Source of the DNA: a phage
Length of the DNA stretch: 42,708 bases
Direction: 5' to 3' (one strand)
Sequence record: QB031384.1
The translations under genes and the position numbers were made by a program. The notes beneath the pieces were generated by a model. The model was not told where the DNA came from, searched no databases, and saw only the letters and a list, made by a program, of their open reading frames with translations. Shown here piece by piece: positions 3-42,393 of this stretch (position 1 is the first letter of the stretch; each line of letters begins with the position of its first letter).

Positions 3-3000
3 TTACCCCTTATTATGTGCCAGCGATTTTACCTGCTCCTTTAGACGGGCAAGTTCTCTACGCTGGTACAGCATCTCAATGAAGAACATCTGATCAGGTC
101 GAATACCCCAACGACTACCTGCAGGAGTAACTACACTTACATTACCTTCCTCGTCATATTCCACCATCTCAGGGTACTCATCGTAGCACAGGAACCCGTA
201 CTTACATGAAGTAGCTTCAGGCTCCATAAGTCCGTTCGTAACGAGCACGTCACGTACCTGCTGTGCTATTACACCGAAGTGAGTACGAGCAGCATCCCCT
301 TTAGTAGCTAGACTGTCAAGCCACTTAAAGCTAATGATATGTACATCCTCCCAAGCATCTAACAGTGCCGATTCCACTTCCTCTGGAGCTGTTTTAAGAG
401 TACCGTCAGAAGTATTGATAGTGCCTGTAGCAGCGTACACCGTACTCCACCTATTAGATGCGCCTCCTAATGCTACAGAGGAGTCGTTATAAGGTAGCAG
501 GTTGTTTTGAGTGTAGACACCTCCCGTTGCGTACAGGACTGCCCTATTAGGCGTACTGTGATTAGATCCATAGAGTTGCACAATAGCGCCAGAGGCAGCG
601 GAGTTACCTGACCCTCCGCCCAGAATAAGCCGTTGCTGTGCTGGGTTATCAGTAGGCACTGACTTGTAAATCTGACCGTAATCCCCGTCCAGAAGTACTT
701 CAGACCGTACAGCAGGGATTCCGTTATGCCCAGTACCTGTAACACGCAAGGAGTTAACCTGTACGCTCTCATCAAAGACCATAGGCGCTGAAACATGACG
801 TAACCCATCTACCCCCATAGACACAGGTACAGTACGGTTAGGTGCTGCCCCGTATTTAAAGTCGCGAGACACATGCTGCTGCGGACCTACCTTAATACGG
901 TAGCTGTACAGGTCAGTAGGATGACCATCCTGCACGTACCAGCGCTTAGCAGAGTTACCTCCAATGGACCACGGGGATAAGAAATCCTCTCCGCCGAACA
1001 GATAGTACAGCCACCCATCCTTAACGCATACAGAACCTACCCCTACTGAGGAGTTAACTATGTTACCCTGATAAATCTGGTCGGTAACATTAAACCACTG
1101 CACCTCATCTAATGAGCTAGGCCAGTTACGGACGTTAACCTTGCACATAAAGGTGCGTGCGTAATTACCGTTGTAACGGTTATCAGGGGTATCCGCTTCC
1201 CACTCGTTTGCAGCCCGCTCACTCGAGAAGATATACAACTCGTCCCCCACCTTAGCAAAAGGTAGGTTACTGTTATGTACCTTGTTAGGGAAACGTAAGT
1301 ACTCCCAAGTCAAGCCTGAGTTAGTACTACGTGCCAAGGTAGAACCTGCGGAGGTGGCGGATGTTCCCCGAGTAGTAAGATACAACTCCCCGTCGTAATA
1401 GCGTATGCAAGGTTCGGAGGCATCGTTCGCGTACTCCTGAGACACTGTACGACGTTCAAATACTCCGGGATTGTTGTACACATCAGGGAAGTACAGGATA
1501 CCTAAACGTCTAGGAGAGACGTCACCGTTATGATAACCTACTGCAACTGCGTTACCTTCAAGGGCGGTAAAGCTATGGGTTTCAGTTACAGCTAAGTCAG
1601 CGTTAGTAGAGTATGCGATTCCCGGCAGTAAGGTCACTTCCCACTGGCAGTCCCAGAAACGTGTACCAAAGCTCCAAGTAACCCCGGCGTTGGTCAACGT
1701 TGAGGCAGCTGCGTTAGTTAAAGGTACTGTAATAGTATTAGCGTCAACTACGGTACGTACTACAGTATTACCTGAAACACCCGTAACCCCAGAGTTCGAG
1801 AAGTTAATAGTATCTCCTACCTTAAGCCCATGCATAGGAAGTACTACAGTAGCGAAGTTATCCCCAGCCACTGTGCTGATACCCCCAGTAGGCCTACGAG
1901 CATACGGCATTGGGCGCGACCACATCTCCGCCCGTACCATCCTAGCGTCAGATAGATTACGGGTCTCTACTAGCATGTACAAGCGGTTATTAGAAACACC
2001 CATGCTCATACAATGGTAGTTAACACCTGAGGCATAGTTAGGGTGGATAGGAGTAAGCCATTCTGGCATCGTCCACGTCTGACCATCGTCACCTGAACGT
2101 ACCCATGCTACATGCAGGTTCTGTACGCCATGCCGTTCACCTGCCATGAATGGTACGTATATTACATTATCATATACGAAAGACTTATCCTGAGTCCACG
2201 CATTGTAGAACGGGGTGTCTGTAATCTTAGTAAGACCTGCTTCGAAATAACCCTCCGATACATAAGTAAGAGGCTGACCCGCTAAGCGCTCATACTTAAA
2301 CGCGGCATTGCGGAAGCGGCTGAGGTCAGGTAAGGTAGTTACTTTAAAAGTTAAACCTTTACCGTCTATGTACTGATTATGGACCGCCGCTGCCAGCATG
2401 GCTTGAAGTGCTGCCGTATCATCCGTAACTGCATCACCTGCTACTCCCCATCCACGTACGTCAAAGGAATCTCTCCAATGAGGGCGGTAATACTCAGGAT
2501 TAACCTCAGGCCCGTCTATGCGAGTTAAGGCGTTACTCAGTGCAGCTAAACTCTCAGTAGTAGCATAACCTCCTTCCAGAACATCCTCACCTAGTCGCAT
2601 GAATACGTGAGTACCTGCGGGAACAGGGTCGGCTAGTATTACTGTATTGTCCCTAATGGTGTAACTGTACCCCGGAGTTTGACACACCCCGTTAATGTAC
2701 ACTGCTGCCTTTGTGAAGTTAAGGGCAATTCGGAACTCTTTAGTAGGTTCAGTAGTGTTGAAGTACATAGGGTAGCTGGAGGTAACACCGTTAAATGCAC
2801 CTTCGATGTTATCTACCCTGGTACTCACCTCATCCAGCTGTGACTTATTAACTGCATCCGTAGCGTCCTTACCTGCTGCCAGATTAATGATGCGGAAGCC
2901 GTTCATGTTGATAGTACCAAAGAAACCTTCGATACTGCGACCTTCTACCAGTTCCTGAGCTAAGTGCAGGAACTGGGTATTCTGAGTGTCTAAGTTCTCC

Positions 3001-3251
3001 TTAATAAAGGCAGCGCCTTCTGAGAACATGATGTAAAGAAACTCTTTAGCAGTGCGACGTACAATCAGTACAGTGCTCTCTGCATCGAGAGGCTTGTCAA
3101 AGCGGATGCGCGTATCACTGTCCCAAGTAAAATCAAATACCTCTTCACGGTTCACGTACAAGTAAATGTAGGAACGGTCGAGATAGTTGATCTCTACTGG
3201 GACAGTCTGTGCACCAGCTGGTAGAATTTGTTCTTGCCAGCTATAGGCCAT
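3..3251 (-). CDS. Tail fiber / tailspike: N-terminal T7 gp17-like adaptor, central Asp-box (BNR) beta-propeller glycosidase-like region, C-terminal intramolecular chaperone (peptidase S74-like)
   Basis: 1082-aa ORF. N-terminal region carries the tail-fiber motif FRIINLAAGKDATDAVNKSQLD. Central region has Asp-box-like motifs SGDDGQTWTM and STNSGLTWEY. C-terminus has TSDGTLK ... HFGVIAQQVRDVL, typical of autocleaving chaperone domains. Last gene of the structural module. Confidence 0.8.
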   Translation of the reverse strand: MAYSWQEQILPAGAQTVPVEINYLDRSYIYLYVNREEVFDFTWDSDTRIRFDKPLDAESTVLIVRRTAKEFLYIMFSEGAAFIKENLDTQNTQFLHLAQELVEGRSIEGFFGTINMNGFRIINLAAGKDATDAVNKSQLDEVSTRVDNIEGAFNGVTSSYPMYFNTTEPTKEFRIALNFTKAAVYINGVCQTPGYSYTIRDNTVILADPVPAGTHVFMRLGEDVLEGGYATTESLAALSNALTRIDGPEVNPEYYRPHWRDSFDVRGWGVAGDAVTDDTAALQAMLAAAVHNQYIDGKGLTFKVTTLPDLSRFRNAAFKYERLAGQPLTYVSEGYFEAGLTKITDTPFYNAWTQDKSFVYDNVIYVPFMAGERHGVQNLHVAWVRSGDDGQTWTMPEWLTPIHPNYASGVNYHCMSMGVSNNRLYMLVETRNLSDARMVRAEMWSRPMPYARRPTGGISTVAGDNFATVVLPMHGLKVGDTINFSNSGVTGVSGNTVVRTVVDANTITVPLTNAAASTLTNAGVTWSFGTRFWDCQWEVTLLPGIAYSTNADLAVTETHSFTALEGNAVAVGYHNGDVSPRRLGILYFPDVYNNPGVFERRTVSQEYANDASEPCIRYYDGELYLTTRGTSATSAGSTLARSTNSGLTWEYLRFPNKVHNSNLPFAKVGDELYIFSSERAANEWEADTPDNRYNGNYARTFMCKVNVRNWPSSLDEVQWFNVTDQIYQGNIVNSSVGVGSVCVKDGWLYYLFGGEDFLSPWSIGGNSAKRWYVQDGHPTDLYSYRIKVGPQQHVSRDFKYGAAPNRTVPVSMGVDGLRHVSAPMVFDESVQVNSLRVTGTGHNGIPAVRSEVLLDGDYGQIYKSVPTDNPAQQRLILGGGSGNSAASGAIVQLYGSNHSTPNRAVLYATGGVYTQNNLLPYNDSSVALGGASNRWSTVYAATGTINTSDGTLKTAPEEVESALLDAWEDVHIISFKWLDSLATKGDAARTHFGVIAQQVRDVLVTNGLMEPEATSCKYGFLCYDEYPEMVEYDEEGNVSVVTPAGSRWGIRPDQMFFIEMLYQRRELARLKEQVKSLAHNKG

Positions 3252-27650: not shown

Positions 27651-28838
27651 TTAAATTACCTCTTCCTCTTTAAAGGATTTACCAATACCACATTCGGCGG
27701 GAAACTTAACTTCAGACAGTATGCCAAAGTTAGGCCACAACTGTAGCATCCTATCACGGGCTCCTTCCATAACGTTTTTGATGAGCTTACCCGCCTTACG
27801 GGCCGTCTCTTCGTCAGCACAATCTATGTACAAACAGTCATGGACGGTAACCAGCAAACACCATTTACCCCCCATCCAATTGTCAGCTATACCAGCCCTC
27901 ATAGCCATTCCGGTTGCAATAAGCATAAGCAGGGAACCTGATCCTTGAAACGGATAGTTAGCCATCTCTGTGGGCTTAAAGTCCATTACCTGCTTACCTT
28001 CGCGCCACACCGGCTTCTGACGGAAGCGGTAGCGAGTACCGCAAGGCGTAGTGAAGTAGCCCTCGCGATAGATACGCCAGCTGCCGTCATCTGCTTGTTC
28101 ACGGCGTATAGGCTCCAGCAGCGCAGTACGGTTTACTTCAGCTGCAATGACATCCCTGTACTTAATAGACTCAGGGAATAGTGCCTCCTCGTTAGCTAAG
28201 AACTTCTCAGCGTCGGCTAAGCTAGCACCTGAGGCGAACGCCAGTCCTTTAGCGGATGCTCCATATTGTGCTGCGAAGCTGAAGGTTTTGATGGCTGTTC
28301 GCTTCTTCTTCCATCCTTTATGGTCCGGTGCATCCGGGTTATGGCAAAGCTCGTAGACTTCTTCATAAGGCATACCTTCTTGGAATGCTAGACGATAGCA
28401 GTGCATATCCGTACCGGCTTCAAGCAAGCTCAGTAATTTCTTATCACCAGTGATTACACAGCCCATTACAACCTCCATAGCTGAGTAGTCACACTGTGCA
28501 ATCATACCCTGCTCACCATAGCGGCTACGCAGAATCTGCTTAACCTTAGACTCACGCGGCAGCTGCTGCATGTTCGGGTTAGATGTTGACAGGCGTCCGG
28601 TAGTAGTTGAGCAGTGATTCGACCTGTGGTGAATGATGCCAGAACCATCTGCTGATGTAGGGATGACGTACGGCAGCATGCCCGTCACCTTACGCAGACT
28701 GCCATCCTTATTAGTCTCACGTACTTCATAGAAGCCGAGGTCCTTCTGGCGTGTAGTCATTTCTTTGTATGCTTTGAAGAAGTCTGAAGCTAACTTAGCC
28801 ATCTTGTTCCATCCCAATAAAATAATGTGCAAGGTCAT
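27651..28838 (-). CDS. DNA polymerase, family A: polymerase (fingers/palm) part
   Basis: 395-aa ORF with TGRLSTSNPNMQQLP, motif A-like CDYSAMEV, motif B-like RTAIKTFSFAAQYG and motif C VHD. Overlaps the upstream exonuclease-domain ORF by 44 nt in a different frame. Confidence 0.85.
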   Translation of the reverse strand: MTLHIILLGWNKMAKLASDFFKAYKEMTTRQKDLGFYEVRETNKDGSLRKVTGMLPYVIPTSADGSGIIHHRSNHCSTTTGRLSTSNPNMQQLPRESKVKQILRSRYGEQGMIAQCDYSAMEVVMGCVITGDKKLLSLLEAGTDMHCYRLAFQEGMPYEEVYELCHNPDAPDHKGWKKKRTAIKTFSFAAQYGASAKGLAFASGASLADAEKFLANEEALFPESIKYRDVIAAEVNRTALLEPIRREQADDGSWRIYREGYFTTPCGTRYRFRQKPVWREGKQVMDFKPTEMANYPFQGSGSLLMLIATGMAMRAGIADNWMGGKWCLLVTVHDCLYIDCADEETARKAGKLIKNVMEGARDRMLQLWPNFGILSEVKFPAECGIGKSFKEEEVI

Positions 28839-29940
28839 TCATTGCGTCCGTTCCTGTGCTGTACACAGGGCTACCATCCGCTAATGTTTGAGCACCTTTG
28901 TATTCACCGCGGTCTCCGTACTTCTCACGTAGAGACTGAGGTAGGTCCTGAATATTAACCAGCCCGTCGAAGCGGTACAGGCGTTCACCCCACTTCATAG
29001 CTTGCTCGTCAGTGTCTACTTTTATGAACTTAGGCATACCCTTATTACGCCCAGACTTATACACCCCGTCCTGTACTTCCTTCTTAATGTATTTAGGTGG
29101 GTCATAAGGAACCTTGCACTTGTACTTAACCATGCCACCATACACTAAAGCGGACATATGATAACCGCTATTCCAGTTAAACTCGAAGCCCTCTGGCAAT
29201 TCTGGCAAGAATGTCTGAAGTAACTCCCGCAGATTCCGAATAGCGTCCTCCTGCTCCTTCTGGTTTACGCGTGCTGTAGGCATATCAACGTACACGCCAT
29301 TGAACTCACAGTATGCCAGAGCTGCGACTGCCTCCATCCTTTCCCAGACCATAGGCATCTGTCCACGTTCCGCAAATACTGCGCATTGCCCGTAGAAGCA
29401 CAGCGCTGTGTTGACTATGTCACCGTTAGGCCCTGTTAAGTATTCATGTAGTAGCATAGGGTCAATGTCTGCTGTCAGAACCCCTTGCTGCCATAGTAGC
29501 TTAACGCCGTCGACTTTGTGTGACCCGCCATACTTAGGGGCAGTCTCATCTAGTGACGGGTAAAGATTCTGGAAGTCGCTGGCAATGTACTCGCCCTGCA
29601 TAGTATCAAAGACTCGACCTCCTCGTCTAAGGAACGACTCGAACTGCTCACGGGCAAAGGTCAGCGCCCAGCTAATCTCGTACGCTGCGTTGTGCGCTAC
29701 GATTAACCACGTATCATCCTGAATAGGTAGCCACTGCTTAGGGTCAGCTGCTAAGAAATCAGTTCGGGATTCATAGCGTACACTCTGCACCTCGCTGCAC
29801 TGTACAGTCCCATCCGGCATAGTCCTATCAATGCGGAAGCCTGATTCTACGATGTAGTTATCAGGGCAGTACGGAGTTGCGACCCCGCCGTAGTACGGAT
29901 GATTTTGAGTTTCAATATCCCAAATTAGAATGCTACTCAT
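28795..29940 (-). CDS. DNA polymerase, family A: N-terminal 3'-5' exonuclease part (separate frame from the polymerase part)
   Basis: Exo I motif WDIET near the N-terminus. The ORF track starts it at a TTG (29946); the ATG at 29940 overlaps the upstream small ORF's stop as ATGA. Ends 44 nt inside the polymerase-domain ORF. Confidence 0.8.
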   Translation of the reverse strand: MSSILIWDIETQNHPYYGGVATPYCPDNYIVESGFRIDRTMPDGTVQCSEVQSVRYESRTDFLAADPKQWLPIQDDTWLIVAHNAAYEISWALTFAREQFESFLRRGGRVFDTMQGEYIASDFQNLYPSLDETAPKYGGSHKVDGVKLLWQQGVLTADIDPMLLHEYLTGPNGDIVNTALCFYGQCAVFAERGQMPMVWERMEAVAALAYCEFNGVYVDMPTARVNQKEQEDAIRNLRELLQTFLPELPEGFEFNWNSGYHMSALVYGGMVKYKCKVPYDPPKYIKKEVQDGVYKSGRNKGMPKFIKVDTDEQAMKWGERLYRFDGLVNIQDLPQSLREKYGDRGEYKGAQTLADGSPVYSTGTDAMNDLAHYFIGMEQDG

Positions 29941-30089
29941 TTCCAATTACTCCGACGTGATTTATTAATGGCTGCCCGTACAATCATCTCGCTACTGTCC
30001 AGCGTGTAGCGCCTAACCTGCTTACGATTGTTAGCAATTGCTCTGATGACTTCGTAGTCTGCCTCAGTAATATCACTTTGCTTTAGCAT
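29937..30089 (-). CDS. Small basic ORF (50 aa), not in ORF track
   Basis: ATG at 30089-30087 preceded by GGTGAGGTG; stop overlaps the DNA polymerase ATG. Translation MLKQSDITEADYEVIRAIANNRKQVRRYTLDSSEMIVRAAINKSRRSNWK. Confidence 0.35.
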   Translation of the reverse strand: MLKQSDITEADYEVIRAIANNRKQVRRYTLDSSEMIVRAAINKSRRSNWK

Positions 30090-35543: not shown

Positions 35544-35882
35544 TTACGCATTATGTGCATTCTCCTCACAATACTGCAACGCAAAGCGCAGCAATTCATT
35601 ATACAGCGAAGTAGTCAGAATCCCTTCATTGTAGTACTCAGCCTCATGCTTACGGAGAGTATCCTTAGCAGCGCATGCAACCTTCAAGCTGCACCCTGTA
35701 GCCTGCATAAGGCCGCGTACAAGCTGTGTATCCTTATAAGCTTTCTTAGCATGCCATTTAACAAAACTTACTGCTGCACCTACAACAACCATACCACCCA
35801 TCACGACAAAGCCAATTGCACTAGACATATCATATACCTTTAATTCTGTACCCTCGCAGCGAGGATACTTAACTAAAGACAT
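35544..35882 (-). CDS. Hypothetical membrane protein (112 aa)
   Basis: First ORF after promoter-leader cassette R3. Contains one clear hydrophobic helix (GFVVMGGMVVVGAAVSFV). Confidence 0.45.
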   Translation of the reverse strand: MSLVKYPRCEGTELKVYDMSSAIGFVVMGGMVVVGAAVSFVKWHAKKAYKDTQLVRGLMQATGCSLKVACAAKDTLRKHEAEYYNEGILTTSLYNELLRFALQYCEENAHNA

Positions 35883-37416: not shown

Positions 37417-39162
37417 TTAGTTATTGCGTCCTGTAAGAAGTACTGCATGATCATACGTGTGCTGCACCCCATCCAGCTGCATGCACAGACCTATTAACTG
37501 ACCGTTACTGCTGCCGGAATAACTAGCAGGAGCATCAAACTGACCTGAGATACCGCGTCTATCCAGGGCATCTGCACGAGCAACCCAACTGTAGTTACCT
37601 GGAGCAGCACTACGCTGTACGCCCGACCCAGCGGGTAAAGTAAAGCTAAGCTGTTTAGGGAAGCTACAGCGTAAGTTCAGAGGAGGTGCACCGCCATCTT
37701 CGAAGAACAATGCATTCCCTGAGCTGGTAGCCCAGTTAGAAGGGAATACTTCTACAGTACAGTCGCTGAAGCTCGTGCCAGGACGAAAGTACATGAAGCT
37801 GTAAAGTTCTGAGCTAGGGTGGCGCATCCTGATACTGATGTTGCAGCGGGTCATGCTTGAGATACGTTGTGTTTCAAACAAGTTCAGTCCGGTACGAGTA
37901 CCAGTATTAGTATCGCCGATGATGTTACTTGCATCCCAATTGAAGCGTTCTACCTGAACAGTACGGGGAGACGGTAACTCCGAGACCATAGCTTGTTTAA
38001 CATCGAAGAAGTTATCCTGGAACACTATGCCCTGAATACTACCGTTCATAGTAATGGCTGCGCTCAGGCTACGGCTGCGGTCTACAATGAAGCTACAACC
38101 ACGTACAGTAACATCATTAATGAGATACTGGCTTGAGTCGGAGTTAGAGTCCTGAAAGAAGTCTACGAAGCTGCACATACCCGGGTGGTTACCTGAAGTG
38201 AACCGACAATTCTCTACAGTAAAGCCGTTAATATGCGTAGTAGCTACTGCATCTGGACCTGCTGCAAAGATAACAACCTGACCTGATACGTCCCCAGTTA
38301 CCCCGGACATAACAGAGTTGTAAAGGTACGTACCAGCACCCTCTGACTCTGCGCCGTGCAGTGCTACATAGCAGCCGCGGGTATATCCTGAAATGAAAGA
38401 ATCGCGATAGTACGTATTATGCTGGTGCAGTTCTACAGTAGCAGCAATTACACGTGCACGGGCAGAATTAGCCCGGAATGTACAGCCTGTGACACCACTA
38501 AATGGTGCGTTTACATATACAGTACTGTGGTCACGGTTTACATCGCTCTGAATCAGGTTAAGGAACCGGCAGTTACGTACATGCGTATCTGAGCCGTACC
38601 CGTTCCAGCCAATAGTAACGCCCCATGTAACGTCCCCGTTCTGGAAGGTAATGCCATCTACGCTACAGTTATACCCGCGTCCGAATGCGATACCATTGCG
38701 GAGATGCCCGGCGTTAGCGAAGTCGTAACCGCCAAAGTCAATAGTACCCTCGCCATAAATATGGCAGTTATCAAGGTTGCCCGAGTTAGCTGGGTTACCA
38801 TCAGTAAAGCCTACGAAGACTTGGAAGGAACTATTAGCTAAAGCAGGGCCTACTTTAATAGTACCGTCCAGTTTAATACTTACATTGCTTTTAAGCTGGA
38901 TAAGACCGCTATGCCCTGAAACTGGGCCAGTGCTAATGCTGTTCAGCGTCCATGTACCTTCCGGGATAACTAGTAAACCGCCACCTACTGACTCTATGTA
39001 ATCAATAGCTGCCTGCATACCTTCTCGGGCATCAGCTACGTCGGGAGTAATCCACTGGCGCAGGTTATACCCATTATCATTGAGGTAGGTGCTAAGCTGT
39101 AAACCTGAATGGTCTACATGCAGCGTATCCAGTTCGACTTCAACTAACTTTACTAAGGTCAT
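37417..39162 (-). CDS. Tailspike / polysaccharide depolymerase with right-handed beta-helix (pectate-lyase-like), no N-terminal particle-anchor domain
   Basis: 581-aa ORF with N-terminal REGMQAAIDYIESVGGGLLVIPEGTWTLNS, then Gly/Asn/Thr-rich repeats typical of parallel beta-helices. No gp17-like adaptor region. Last gene before the putative genome end. Confidence 0.7.
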   Translation of the reverse strand: MTLVKLVEVELDTLHVDHSGLQLSTYLNDNGYNLRQWITPDVADAREGMQAAIDYIESVGGGLLVIPEGTWTLNSISTGPVSGHSGLIQLKSNVSIKLDGTIKVGPALANSSFQVFVGFTDGNPANSGNLDNCHIYGEGTIDFGGYDFANAGHLRNGIAFGRGYNCSVDGITFQNGDVTWGVTIGWNGYGSDTHVRNCRFLNLIQSDVNRDHSTVYVNAPFSGVTGCTFRANSARARVIAATVELHQHNTYYRDSFISGYTRGCYVALHGAESEGAGTYLYNSVMSGVTGDVSGQVVIFAAGPDAVATTHINGFTVENCRFTSGNHPGMCSFVDFFQDSNSDSSQYLINDVTVRGCSFIVDRSRSLSAAITMNGSIQGIVFQDNFFDVKQAMVSELPSPRTVQVERFNWDASNIIGDTNTGTRTGLNLFETQRISSMTRCNISIRMRHPSSELYSFMYFRPGTSFSDCTVEVFPSNWATSSGNALFFEDGGAPPLNLRCSFPKQLSFTLPAGSGVQRSAAPGNYSWVARADALDRRGISGQFDAPASYSGSSNGQLIGLCMQLDGVQHTYDHAVLLTGRNN

Positions 39163-39171
39163 ACCTGTTCC

Positions 39172-39735
39172 TTATTTAGGCATAGCAGCTACTGCTGCTT
39201 GCATAGATTTAAATTCGTTGCCAATAGCTTTGGCTTCCCACTTACGGCGCTCCCAGAGCCCGTAGCAGACCTTATTAGGTTTACCCTTTACCAACATACT
39301 ACAGTCGTACTTAACCCCGTTACGGGTGATATAGCGCCAGCTAAGTACAGCCTTAGCTGCACCTTTAGTATCGCCTTGCATTAGCTTTCGCTTCGCGGTA
39401 CTGTTCTTGAAACCTGAGATACCGGTGTTATAGGTCATGTCCAAAGCACCAAGAATCTGTACGTCCGTAAGGGACATAGGAAGCCCGTCAAGAGCCTTAG
39501 CATGCTCCCCAGCTGATTGTATCAGTTGTTGCTTACACTGCGTCAGAGTGGCTGTATCGCCCATCCTAACGCCCTTAGTCTCACCATAGCAGATAGTAGG
39601 TACTCCGGCGGAGTCCTTGTATGCCTTAAGGGAGAGACCTTCGTTATGCTGTATCACCATAGCGATACTGGCGCCCAGCAGGGAAGTCCCTGCCAGCGCC
39701 GCCTTAACCTTGTTGCTTATGCTCATAGTATTCAA
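39172..39735 (-). CDS. Endolysin, lysozyme family (GH24-like) with N-terminal signal or signal-anchor-release segment
   Basis: 187-aa ORF with catalytic-region pattern EGLSLKAYKDSAGVPTICYGET (E ... D ... T) preceded by the weakly hydrophobic N-terminus KVKAALAGTSLLGASIAMVI. Confidence 0.8.
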   Translation of the reverse strand: MNTMSISNKVKAALAGTSLLGASIAMVIQHNEGLSLKAYKDSAGVPTICYGETKGVRMGDTATLTQCKQQLIQSAGEHAKALDGLPMSLTDVQILGALDMTYNTGISGFKNSTAKRKLMQGDTKGAAKAVLSWRYITRNGVKYDCSMLVKGKPNKVCYGLWERRKWEAKAIGNEFKSMQAAVAAMPK

Positions 39736-39952
39736 GGCCCTTCTCTAAGGCTCGCTCCTTGAGCTTGTACTCTTTGTGCCTGTAGTATGCGTTCCATGCA
39801 AAGGTCAGTACAGCTACAACCGTACCGACTATGAAGGAGATTGTCCCCCAGTTCCAAGACATTATGTTTGCCATCCAACCGCCGCCCATAGTAGCGACTG
39901 ACACATTCGTTCCTACACGGGTGATAGTTTCCCCGTTAATTGGTAGACTCAT
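39704..39952 (-). CDS. Putative holin (82 aa from SD-supported internal ATG; the ORF track extends it to 40027)
   Basis: Hydrophobic helix WGTISFIVGTVVAVLTFAW followed by a charged C-terminus, immediately upstream of the endolysin. The ATG at 39952 has AAGGA 9 nt upstream. Confidence 0.4.
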   Translation of the reverse strand: MSLPINGETITRVGTNVSVATMGGGWMANIMSWNWGTISFIVGTVVAVLTFAWNAYYRHKEYKLKERALEKGLEYYEHKQQG

Positions 39953-40361
39953 CGCTTTCGTCCTTAGTTCTTCCGAGTTTGCGGAACAACAGGACAATGA
40001 TGAGGATTGCGATTGGAACCGCTGCACCTGCCAGTCCTGCTAGAATTATGCTAGTACCGTCATTGTTAACAACCTGTACTCGCTCCGTGTTAATGGTTCC
40101 AGTAGTAACTGAACTGGACTGCTTCTTGGTAGAAGTATCCAGCGTGCCTACGTTAGAATCTTTAATTGATGTTTCATTGTCCGTGCTGGAGTCGGACTTG
40201 CCATTAAGGCCTACAGTTTGTTTCGTATTCTCTGCGCCAGCTTGCACGGACAGGTCTGGCTTAGAGCCAATAAGACCTGTCAATGCAGAGGTCGCTGAGC
40301 AGCCTACCAAACACCCTGTAAGAGCCGTAGCGAGGACTAACCCAGCGACCTTAGCCCGCAT
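39936..40361 (-). CDS. Lipoprotein with C-terminal transmembrane helix (unimolecular-spanin-like)
   Basis: 141-aa ORF. N-terminal signal with lipobox LTGC, a Ser/Thr-rich middle, then C-terminal TMD IILAGLAGAAVPIAILIIVLLF and a charged tail. Confidence 0.5.
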   Translation of the reverse strand: MRAKVAGLVLATALTGCLVGCSATSALTGLIGSKPDLSVQAGAENTKQTVGLNGKSDSSTDNETSIKDSNVGTLDTSTKKQSSSVTTGTINTERVQVVNNDGTSIILAGLAGAAVPIAILIIVLLFRKLGRTKDESDESTN

Positions 40362-40543
40362 CAGGCTGCTGCTTTAACGGCAGCGATAGCCGCTTCCAGA
40401 GCCGCTACTTTAGCATCGTATGCAGCGCCTACAGAGTTCACATCCAGAGGCTGGGTCATAATCTTATAAACCTCCTTAGCGTGAATAGTAAGTTGACGCT
40501 GAAGCTCAATCTTCTGAGCGGGGGTAGCTTTTGCAATTGCCAT
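40361..40543 (-). CDS. Hypothetical protein (60 aa, Ala-rich)
   Basis: ORF-track ORF between terminase large subunit and the lysis genes. No motif recognised. Confidence 0.4.
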   Translation of the reverse strand: MAIAKATPAQKIELQRQLTIHAKEVYKIMTQPLDVNSVGAAYDAKVAALEAAIAAVKAAA

Positions 40544-40569
40544 GTTATATCTCCTTAATTAATATTTAA

Positions 40570-42393
40570 TTAATATTTGATGCGTGCGCTCGCACCACGC
40601 TTGCGCTTGTGCACCATTGACTTCTTCCAGCCCATAGGGTTATCCATAAAGTCTAACGCCTTCTTAAGCTGGTCCTTCTCTGCTGCCTGCTTCTCATCCT
40701 CTACGAGGTGCGAGTTCAGTTCAGCTACGAGCATACTAATAGCGTCTGCCCGGTCATCCTTCGCTAGGCTACCACGGTCATAAGTAATACCAGATAACTG
40801 CTGGAACGCACTGTAAAGCCAGCGCTTATCACGACTGTACTGCATACAGTATTTGATATCGTCTTCCAGCGCCCTAGCGTGCACTACAAAGCGGTGACGA
40901 CGCGTAACAGGGGAGATAGTATCAATGATACGTTTCTCCTTCTGGGACGTGTTATAACCGCCCCTGACACCAATGCCGGGCATACTACGCTCACGCAGAC
41001 GGTTTATAATCAAAGATTCTACCGTGCCGTGACCCATGTTACGCTCGACAAAGATGTCAGTAATACCCATCTCGACCGCTAGGTCAATCAAGGTATCTAC
41101 GTTCTCTGTGCTAAGCCCACCCTGCAACCCGCCTACAGTAAAGAGGTGGATGTAAGAGCTAACTGCACCACCGGCTGCAAAGGATACTTCATCACCACCG
41201 TTACCAGCAGGGTCAAGTACCAGCAGCTTGTGCTTGTAGTTGAGCATATGCTCCCCTATGTGGCTCGGCACATACAGTTGCTGACCTCGAATACCTTCGT
41301 GTTCCTCTCCGTAGAGATAGCGCTTATCAGCCATGTAGTTCAGTCGGTCAGGTGCTGCATCATGCGAGCCAGTGTAAATCAAAGCGTCACTGAGTTTAAT
41401 CTTGGTACGTAGTGCATCGGACATGGTTGTGTCGAGCATATACTGTAATTGGAACCCTTCTGGGCCGAAGTCCAGTTCCTTCTCAATCAAGGCTTCCTCG
41501 TTATAACGTCCTTTATCGGTGCATTCACCTAACGTACCATCCAACCCAAAGCCTGTTTCTTTATACCCTGCGTCGATGAGGGTTTGAATATACGGGGCAA
41601 GGGTTTCTCCGTAACGCTCGCGCATCTCCTGATTAGGAATACGTCCAGGCCATACACGTACCTCGAAGCCACGACCCGGCAGTGTCTTGTAGATACTCTC
41701 CTTAGTCTGAGGAGTACCGAGGTACAGGGTATCACCGTGCGTACAGATAGCTGCAAAGTCTTTAGAGATGTTCAGTAACTGCTCACGCATTGTCTGCGTC
41801 AGGCCGTTCTTGGTTGTTTCAATATCGTCAGGAATCAGGAGGTCAGCACGTTTACCCTGAAGCTGCGCGGTAATACCAACACAAGCAATAGAGGCTGACT
41901 TATCCAGAGGTTTCAAATCGCAGTTAATGTCGTACCCTTCATAAGAGGTACGGTCACCACGGGTAGGGTCTGCTTTCAGGTAACAGAGCAGAGGCCACGT
42001 CTCAATCATACGAATGACAAGCGTAGCTACTTCGGATGCCTGCTTCTCACCGCCAGAGACGATAAGAATACGTGTACGCTGGTCTTGAATAAGCCGCCAT
42101 ACAGCGTACAGGGCAGCCAACGTGGATTTTGCTTCGCCTCGTTGTGCAGCTACCATGCGCTTACGCGGACCGTGCTGCATGAAGTCAGCAATATCACGCT
42201 GCATCTCCGTCAGGTCAAAGCCTAGGAACTTCATACCTAAGTATGCAAACTCCCGGAAGTCCTTCAGGGTAACAGCCATCATCAGTGCTACTTCCTCGCG
42301 CTGGTCCTTAGGGATAGTGCGGGGACTGTCATTCATTACTGTAGTGCGTTGAGATATTAGTTTCAATCGGTTCAGTGTAGTAGGACTAATCAC
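40570..42393 (-). CDS. Terminase large subunit (T7 gp19-like)
   Basis: 607-aa ORF (T7 gp19 is about 586 aa) with ATPase-like N-terminal half and nuclease-like C-terminal half, directly after the small-subunit gene. Confidence 0.85.
   Translation of the reverse strand: MISPTTLNRLKLISQRTTVMNDSPRTIPKDQREEVALMMAVTLKDFREFAYLGMKFLGFDLTEMQRDIADFMQHGPRKRMVAAQRGEAKSTLAALYAVWRLIQDQRTRILIVSGGEKQASEVATLVIRMIETWPLLCYLKADPTRGDRTSYEGYDINCDLKPLDKSASIACVGITAQLQGKRADLLIPDDIETTKNGLTQTMREQLLNISKDFAAICTHGDTLYLGTPQTKESIYKTLPGRGFEVRVWPGRIPNQEMRERYGETLAPYIQTLIDAGYKETGFGLDGTLGECTDKGRYNEEALIEKELDFGPEGFQLQYMLDTTMSDALRTKIKLSDALIYTGSHDAAPDRLNYMADKRYLYGEEHEGIRGQQLYVPSHIGEHMLNYKHKLLVLDPAGNGGDEVSFAAGGAVSSYIHLFTVGGLQGGLSTENVDTLIDLAVEMGITDIFVERNMGHGTVESLIINRLRERSMPGIGVRGGYNTSQKEKRIIDTISPVTRRHRFVVHARALEDDIKYCMQYSRDKRWLYSAFQQLSGITYDRGSLAKDDRADAISMLVAELNSHLVEDEKQAAEKDQLKKALDFMDNPMGWKKSMVHKRKRGASARIKY

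Follow-up and report, generated by a model that had tools for sequence, protein, structure and literature searches.

The 141-aa protein encoded at 39936-40361 on the minus strand of a 42.7-kb window (the whole stretch of DNA analyzed, 42,708 nucleotides; sequence record QB031384.1) is very probably a functional unimolecular spanin (u-spanin) of the T1 gp11 family, as judged from homology, protein architecture, and gene neighborhood. A preliminary description of this DNA had proposed a u-spanin in place of an Rz/Rz1 pair, and that reading is supported by i) the homology of the protein to T1 gp11 and to the spanin of phage F19; ii) the location of the gene in a lysis cassette; and iii) the absence of any two-component spanin from the genome. 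Neither the u-spanin identity nor the spanin-holin-endolysin gene order is new, however. Eriksson et al. (2015) presented this order as a hallmark of the KP34-like genus and contrasted it with that of phiKMV, and Buttimer et al. (2018) described both the same order and the phiKMV contrast for PhiM1-like phages; the reading, including the assertion that the gene order is unlike that of phiKMV, is thus right but already in the literature.

Every gene of the window is on the minus strand, as are the parts of the spanin gene described below. An endosialidase ORF (1082 aa, 3-3251) is found near one window edge, and the small terminase gene ends at the last base of the window. Since the endosialidase and small terminase genes adjoin in vB_EcoP_P64441, the Escherichia phage (Slopekvirinae) whose GenBank record is the nearest (94.6% DNA identity in the lysis region), the window is a complete, circularly permuted genome. 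It belongs to a KP34-like (Slopekvirinae) podophage, a K1-capsule coliphage, and claims that a gene is absent can therefore be checked genome-wide.

Several other features of the genome deserve mention. The endosialidase matches End_beta_propel with 654 bits, and has a T7 tail-fibre domain at its N-terminus and an S74 chaperone at its C-terminus; taken together with a 581-aa tailspike (37417-39162; phrog_20900), the second receptor-binding protein, encoded directly after the endolysin, it suggests a K1-capsule coliphage in which a KP34-like backbone carries a dual-depolymerase arrangement. The DNA polymerase appears to be encoded by two overlapping ORFs, 27651-28838 (395 aa) and 28795-29946 (383 aa), and is likewise represented by two CDS in P64441. 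Three GenBank records named as 'Listeria phage' or 'Salmonella phage' (OR846963.1, OR849139.1, and OR850875.1) share their lysis region with the E. coli phage ECO104 4-5-2, which is itself flagged UNVERIFIED_ORG; their identity to the window (85.2%), coverage, and score equal those of ECO104 4-5-2, and the Listeria and Salmonella host labels look unreliable.

The large terminase gene (40570-42393) is followed downstream, in order, by a gene for a 60-aa Ala-rich protein (40361-40543; phrog_7375), the spanin gene (39936-40361, with an ATG start, identified as an ORF and by phrog_1804 and BLASTP matches), the holin gene (39704-39952, 82 aa), the endolysin gene (39172-39726 if translated from an ATG, giving 184 aa, or beginning at 39735 if translated from an alternative TTG), and the tailspike gene. 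The genes are tightly packed. The 60-aa gene ends and the spanin gene begins within the sequence TGATG, where stop and start codons overlap, so that translation of the spanin is probably coupled to that of the 60-aa gene; the holin gene starts 17 nt inside the 3′ end of the spanin gene, with AAGGA upstream of the holin ATG; and the endolysin start falls within the holin gene. A scan for sigma-70 promoters and terminators around the cassette gave scores no better than those of shuffled sequences, and such a scan is in any case not relevant to a phage with an RNA polymerase of its own.

The 60-aa protein itself has no TMD and no Pfam or NCBIfam match. Its gene always lies between the terminase and spanin genes in KP34-like phages (for example P64441, Minorna, AttikonH2, and F19), and a homolog, g53, was detected by LC-MS/MS in purified particles of phage fHe-Kpn01. 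In Minorna, AttikonH2, and F19, a hypothetical ORF of ~125 aa separates the 60-aa gene from that of the large terminase; the present lineage lacks this ORF and has in its place only a spacer of 26 nt (40544-40569), which is AT-rich and contains an AAGGAG site.

The identity of the 141-aa protein is supported by homology. It matches PHROG 1804, 'Rz-like spanin', over nearly its full length (E 2.8e-39), and a collection of 5.8 billion proteins contains 1114 homologs at E<=1e-3, many of them named spanin or U-spanin by their sources; the PHROG match and the number of homologs together rule out a chance ORF at 39936-40361. By BLASTP, the protein is 37% identical over 124 aa (E 2e-23) to T1 gp11 (NC_005833, 43581-43982), in an alignment that extends from the lipobox, where LSGC of T1 pairs with LVGC, to the C-terminal TMD; with the spanin of phage F19 it shares 64% identity across 98% of its length (E 1e-63). 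Kongari et al. (2018, PMC6139136) assign to the gp11 family any protein with at least 40% identity over at least 40% of its length to a member, and they include the spanins of KP34, F19, NTUH-K2044-K1-1, and LIMElight; the match to the F19 spanin thus places the 141-aa protein in the family by their definition. The prototype of the u-spanins is T1 gp11 (Summer et al. 2007; Kongari et al. 2018), whose gene complements the lysis defect of lambda RzRz1 (Kongari et al. 2018, PMC6139136).

The family is small, and most of its members keep the same architecture. A profile search of 1.84 billion representatives clustered at 50% identity recovered 72 spanin-family clusters; among the 58 near-full-length representatives, a lipobox was recognized in 56, a strong C-terminal TMD in 50, and both in 48. 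None of the near-full-length representatives with a recognized lipobox has a periplasmic Cys, in agreement with the catalog of Kongari et al. (2018, PMC6139136), where 0 of 58 u-spanins has one. The gene is annotated as 'putative spanin' in P64441, where it is the only annotated spanin, and relatives sharing both the gene order and a spanin annotation include, besides P64441, phages Minorna ('unimolecular spanin'), AttikonH2 ('u-spanin'), and F19. Neither Pfam nor NCBIfam has a model for the spanin, the sole match being a chance hit to Protocadherin at 14 bits; a profile search of PDB sequences with the spanin family found no match at E<=1 and hence no solved structure; and we found no experimental work on the KP34-group homologs in the literature searched.

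The sequence and hydropathy of the 141-aa ORF bear out the lipoprotein signal and C-terminal transmembrane helix described earlier. The N-terminus, MRAKVAGLVLATALTGC17LVGC21SATS, consists of a basic n-region, a hydrophobic h-region, and two adjacent canonical lipoboxes; from the sequence and an alignment of 26 homologs, the predicted signal peptide comprises residues 1-21 (40299-40361). The putative periplasmic domain that follows (residues 22-104; 40050-40298), delimited by composition and conservation, is rich in Ser, Thr, Gly, and Asn, with one-third Ser/Thr, no aromatic residues, and one Pro (as computed on residues 22-103), and includes the conserved motif SALTGL.GSKPD..VQ.GAENTKQ. A predicted C-terminal TMD, I105-F126 (39984-40049; Kyte-Doolittle maxima of 2.81 and 2.92 in 19- and 17-residue windows, respectively), would serve as an inner-membrane anchor. 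It is followed directly by the basic stretch RKLGRTK, and the tail RKLGRTKDESDESTN (39939-39983) would be cytoplasmic by the positive-inside rule. An AlphaFold2 model built on the 26-sequence alignment (mean pLDDT 52, pTM 0.19) has helices only in the signal peptide and the TMD, the best-scoring part being a helix at 102-135; pLDDT is below 50 for the periplasmic domain, which in this family is expected to be mainly beta-strand, with no confident fold or secondary structure at residues 22-100.

The lipobox LTGC to which the preliminary description assigned the lipoprotein signal is indeed present (C17; 40311-40322), but it stands in tandem with a second lipobox, LVGC (C21; 40299-40310), and the family-invariant Cys is that of the second box. 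The doubling can be traced in DNA alignments to a 12-nt in-frame insertion, AGGGTGTTTGGT (40306-40317), which is present in P64441 but absent from the 85%-identical phage ECO104 4-5-2; proteins with the insertion are 141 aa long, and homologs without it 137 aa. Six metagenome proteins of 141 aa (P0001-P0006) also have the duplicated lipobox, which in one of them reads LAGCLAGC. In the 26-sequence alignment, which spans the KP34-like and T1-like branches, L18, G20, and C21 are invariant, and LTGC17 falls in a 4-residue insertion confined to the closest relatives; by alignment, therefore, the predicted lipid acceptor of the family is C21 (LVGC) and not C17 (LTGC). A tandem lipobox nonetheless makes the lipidated Cys, and with it the processing site, ambiguous: the periplasmic domain is free of Cys if C21 is lipidated, but has one Cys, at mature position +5, if C17 is. 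We found no description of the duplicated lipobox in the E. coli K1 sublineage. It is a small variant of uncertain consequence, and we consider it unlikely that the duplication is functional in the K1-coliphage sublineage.

The two genes that follow the spanin gene resemble the usual partners of gp11-family spanins, which are accompanied by pinholin/SAR-endolysin cassettes (Kongari et al. 2018, PMC6139136). The preliminary description had the spanin precede a holin candidate with one TMD and a lysozyme-family endolysin, and family searches support both assignments. The holin matches phrog_20 (E 1.2e-18) and passes the gathering score of Pfam Phage_holin_2_1, the P21 S pinholin model (27.9 versus 26 bits). 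Hydropathy reveals one strong TMD at about residues 35-55, in agreement with published annotations of homologs, and the uncharged, weakly hydrophobic residues 13-33 align with TMD1 of the P21 model. The endolysin matches phrog_7 and Pfam Phage_lysozyme (E 8.7e-25), and can be refined to the SAR type: lysines precede a hydrophobic N-terminal segment, VKAALAGTSLLGASIAMVI, about half of which is Gly, Ala, Ser, or Thr; the E-8-D-5-T lysozyme triad (motif EGLSLKAYKDSAGVPT) lies directly after that segment; and the protein is 30% identical to the T1 endolysin gp12 in an alignment that begins at residue 4 and so includes the N-terminus. By these features the endolysin is of the SAR type, for which SAR release itself would be expected by analogy, and a SAR-like N-terminus on the endolysin makes the holin most likely a pinholin. 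The same SAR-endolysin pattern has been described for KP34-like phages (Eriksson et al. 2015) and for PhiM1-like phages (Buttimer et al. 2018).

The genome holds no two-component spanin. We scanned all six frames for lipoboxes twice from all ATG, GTG, and TTG starts, first with the standard lipobox rule and a minimum of 35 aa, and again with a relaxed rule and a minimum of 25 aa on the circularized sequence. Neither whole-genome scan found a credible lipoprotein ORF on the coding strand, embedded or separate, other than the 141-aa ORF, in accord with the earlier statement that no embedded Rz1-like ORF is evident; the remaining lipobox matches are antisense ORFs, or a Cys that falls within a hydrophobic stretch when the helicase gene is read in another frame. 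Nor was an Rz-like type-II protein, with an N-terminal TMD, found anywhere in the genome. A separate Rz/Rz1 pair, which had been named at the outset as evidence that would count against a u-spanin, was thus looked for genome-wide and not found, and we reject the idea that such a pair was missed. A 112-aa ORF of Rz size (35544-35882) was considered and set aside, being located in the early region and having no PHROG family match, and seven other small membrane or unknown ORFs searched in PHROG for a hidden spanin partner gave no match.

These scans also bear on whether the outer membrane might be disrupted by something else, either a two-component spanin or another disruptor such as a cationic peptide like phiKT gp28, leaving the 141-aa protein redundant or decayed. 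Short embedded o-spanin genes are easily overlooked by ORF callers, and phages that lack a spanin but have alternative disruptors are reported to exist (bioRxiv 10.1101/515445). The scans described above, however, covered all starts down to 25 aa with a relaxed lipobox and gave no other credible coding-strand lipoprotein, and the only N-terminal-TMD candidate of Rz size was the early-region 112-aa ORF without a PHROG; decay is contradicted by the 141-aa ORF itself, which is intact and conserved and retains all family-invariant residues. We regard a hidden disruptor acting beside a redundant or decayed 141-aa protein as extremely unlikely.

Could the 141-aa protein instead be a lipoprotein of the virion or of the host envelope, serving perhaps in superinfection exclusion or receptor masking like T5 Llp or Cor, and not a lysis protein at all? 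LC-MS/MS of purified particles of the Klebsiella phage fHe-Kpn01 gave its homolog g54 a score of 'PPAP yes' (Spruit et al. 2020, PMC7291057), and this is the only datum that leads away from a pure lysis role, although some spanin homologs are also named 'outer membrane lipoprotein SlyB' by their source (JGI). The same proteomics detected 29 of 56 fHe-Kpn01 gene products, among them the endolysin g56, and the authors noted that not all of these are structural (PMC7291057); we therefore read the g54 signal as carry-over of membrane or envelope debris. A particle or envelope lipoprotein is also difficult to reconcile with i) homology to gp11, which complementation has shown to be a spanin; ii) the C-terminal TMD, conserved throughout the family but not needed by an exclusion lipoprotein; and iii) the location of the gene in the late lysis cassette, where it overlaps the holin gene. 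We reject the virion reading on these grounds and judge a particle-associated or host-envelope lipoprotein to be very unlikely, so that a u-spanin is the reading we adopt.

As a u-spanin, the protein would be the last to act in a pinholin/SAR-endolysin/u-spanin cassette. The precursor would be exported by Sec; the lipobox Cys (C21 by homology, with C17 as a possible alternative) would undergo diacylglycerylation by Lgt, cleavage by signal peptidase II, and N-acylation; and the Lol system would sort the lipidated N-terminus to the outer membrane, as expected from a +2 residue that is Ser (or Leu) and not Asp. The helix I105-F126 would stay anchored in the inner membrane, leaving the basic tail on the cytoplasmic side. 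The intervening periplasmic segment of ~83 residues would measure ~270 Å if extended (3.3 Å per residue) but only ~123 Å as a helix, so the envelope could be bridged only if the segment is largely extended, which fits the beta-strand model for gp11. Threaded through the peptidoglycan, the segment would be held inactive there until depolarization of the membrane by the pinholin sets the SAR lysozyme free to degrade the murein, whereupon the freed spanins may cluster and collapse, so that inner and outer membranes fuse and the virions are let out. We wish to stress that it is T1 gp11 for which lambda Rz/Rz1 complementation and the model of membrane fusion have been published.

The resemblance to T1 extends beyond the spanin. 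Like gp11, the 141-aa protein has a lipoprotein signal (LSGC in T1, LVGC here), a C-terminal TMD, a basic tail, a similar size (133 aa in T1, 141 aa here), and the shared motif S-A-L-S/T-G-L...P-D-(V/L)-(T/S)-(A/V)-Q-(V/A)-G-A-E-N-T-K-Q, and in both phages a pinholin-type holin and a SAR lysozyme accompany the spanin. T1, however, is a siphovirus (Drexlerviridae) with the gene order holin-endolysin-spanin, whereas the order is spanin-holin-endolysin in this podovirus (Slopekvirinae), and gp11 lacks the duplicated lipobox and acidic C-terminal end of the 141-aa protein. The closer parallels are with the KP34-like phages (Drulisvirus: KP34, F19, NTUH-K2044-K1-1, SU503, and Minorna) and the PhiM1-like Pectobacterium phages, where the spanin gene likewise follows the large terminase and 60-aa genes, the order spanin-holin-SAR endolysin-tailspike is the same, and the spanins are 64-66% identical; the Minorna genome announcement describes its homolog as a unimolecular spanin similar to that of T1. 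The present lineage also differs from these in its 4-residue lipobox duplication and its infection of K1 E. coli by means of an endosialidase. With the Rz/Rz1 pairs of lambda and phiKMV the protein would share a job, linking both membranes and disrupting the outer membrane once the murein is lost, but little else: it is one polypeptide instead of two, has no sequence similarity to them and no embedded gene, is predicted to form no coiled-coil helices, and would have no periplasmic Cys if C21 is lipidated.

These findings have little significance beyond annotation, in that they assign the gene to the T1 gp11-family u-spanins and the cassette to the pinholin/SAR-endolysin/u-spanin type. U-spanins are of some applied interest because expression of the T1 spanin in Gram-negative cells is strongly bactericidal (PMC10954549), and to the general picture of u-spanins this copy contributes no more than a natural variant with a duplicated lipobox. 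Were C17 to be processed, the mature u-spanin would carry a free Cys five residues from its lipid anchor, and disulfide-linked dimers like those of Rz1, or two isoforms, could arise.
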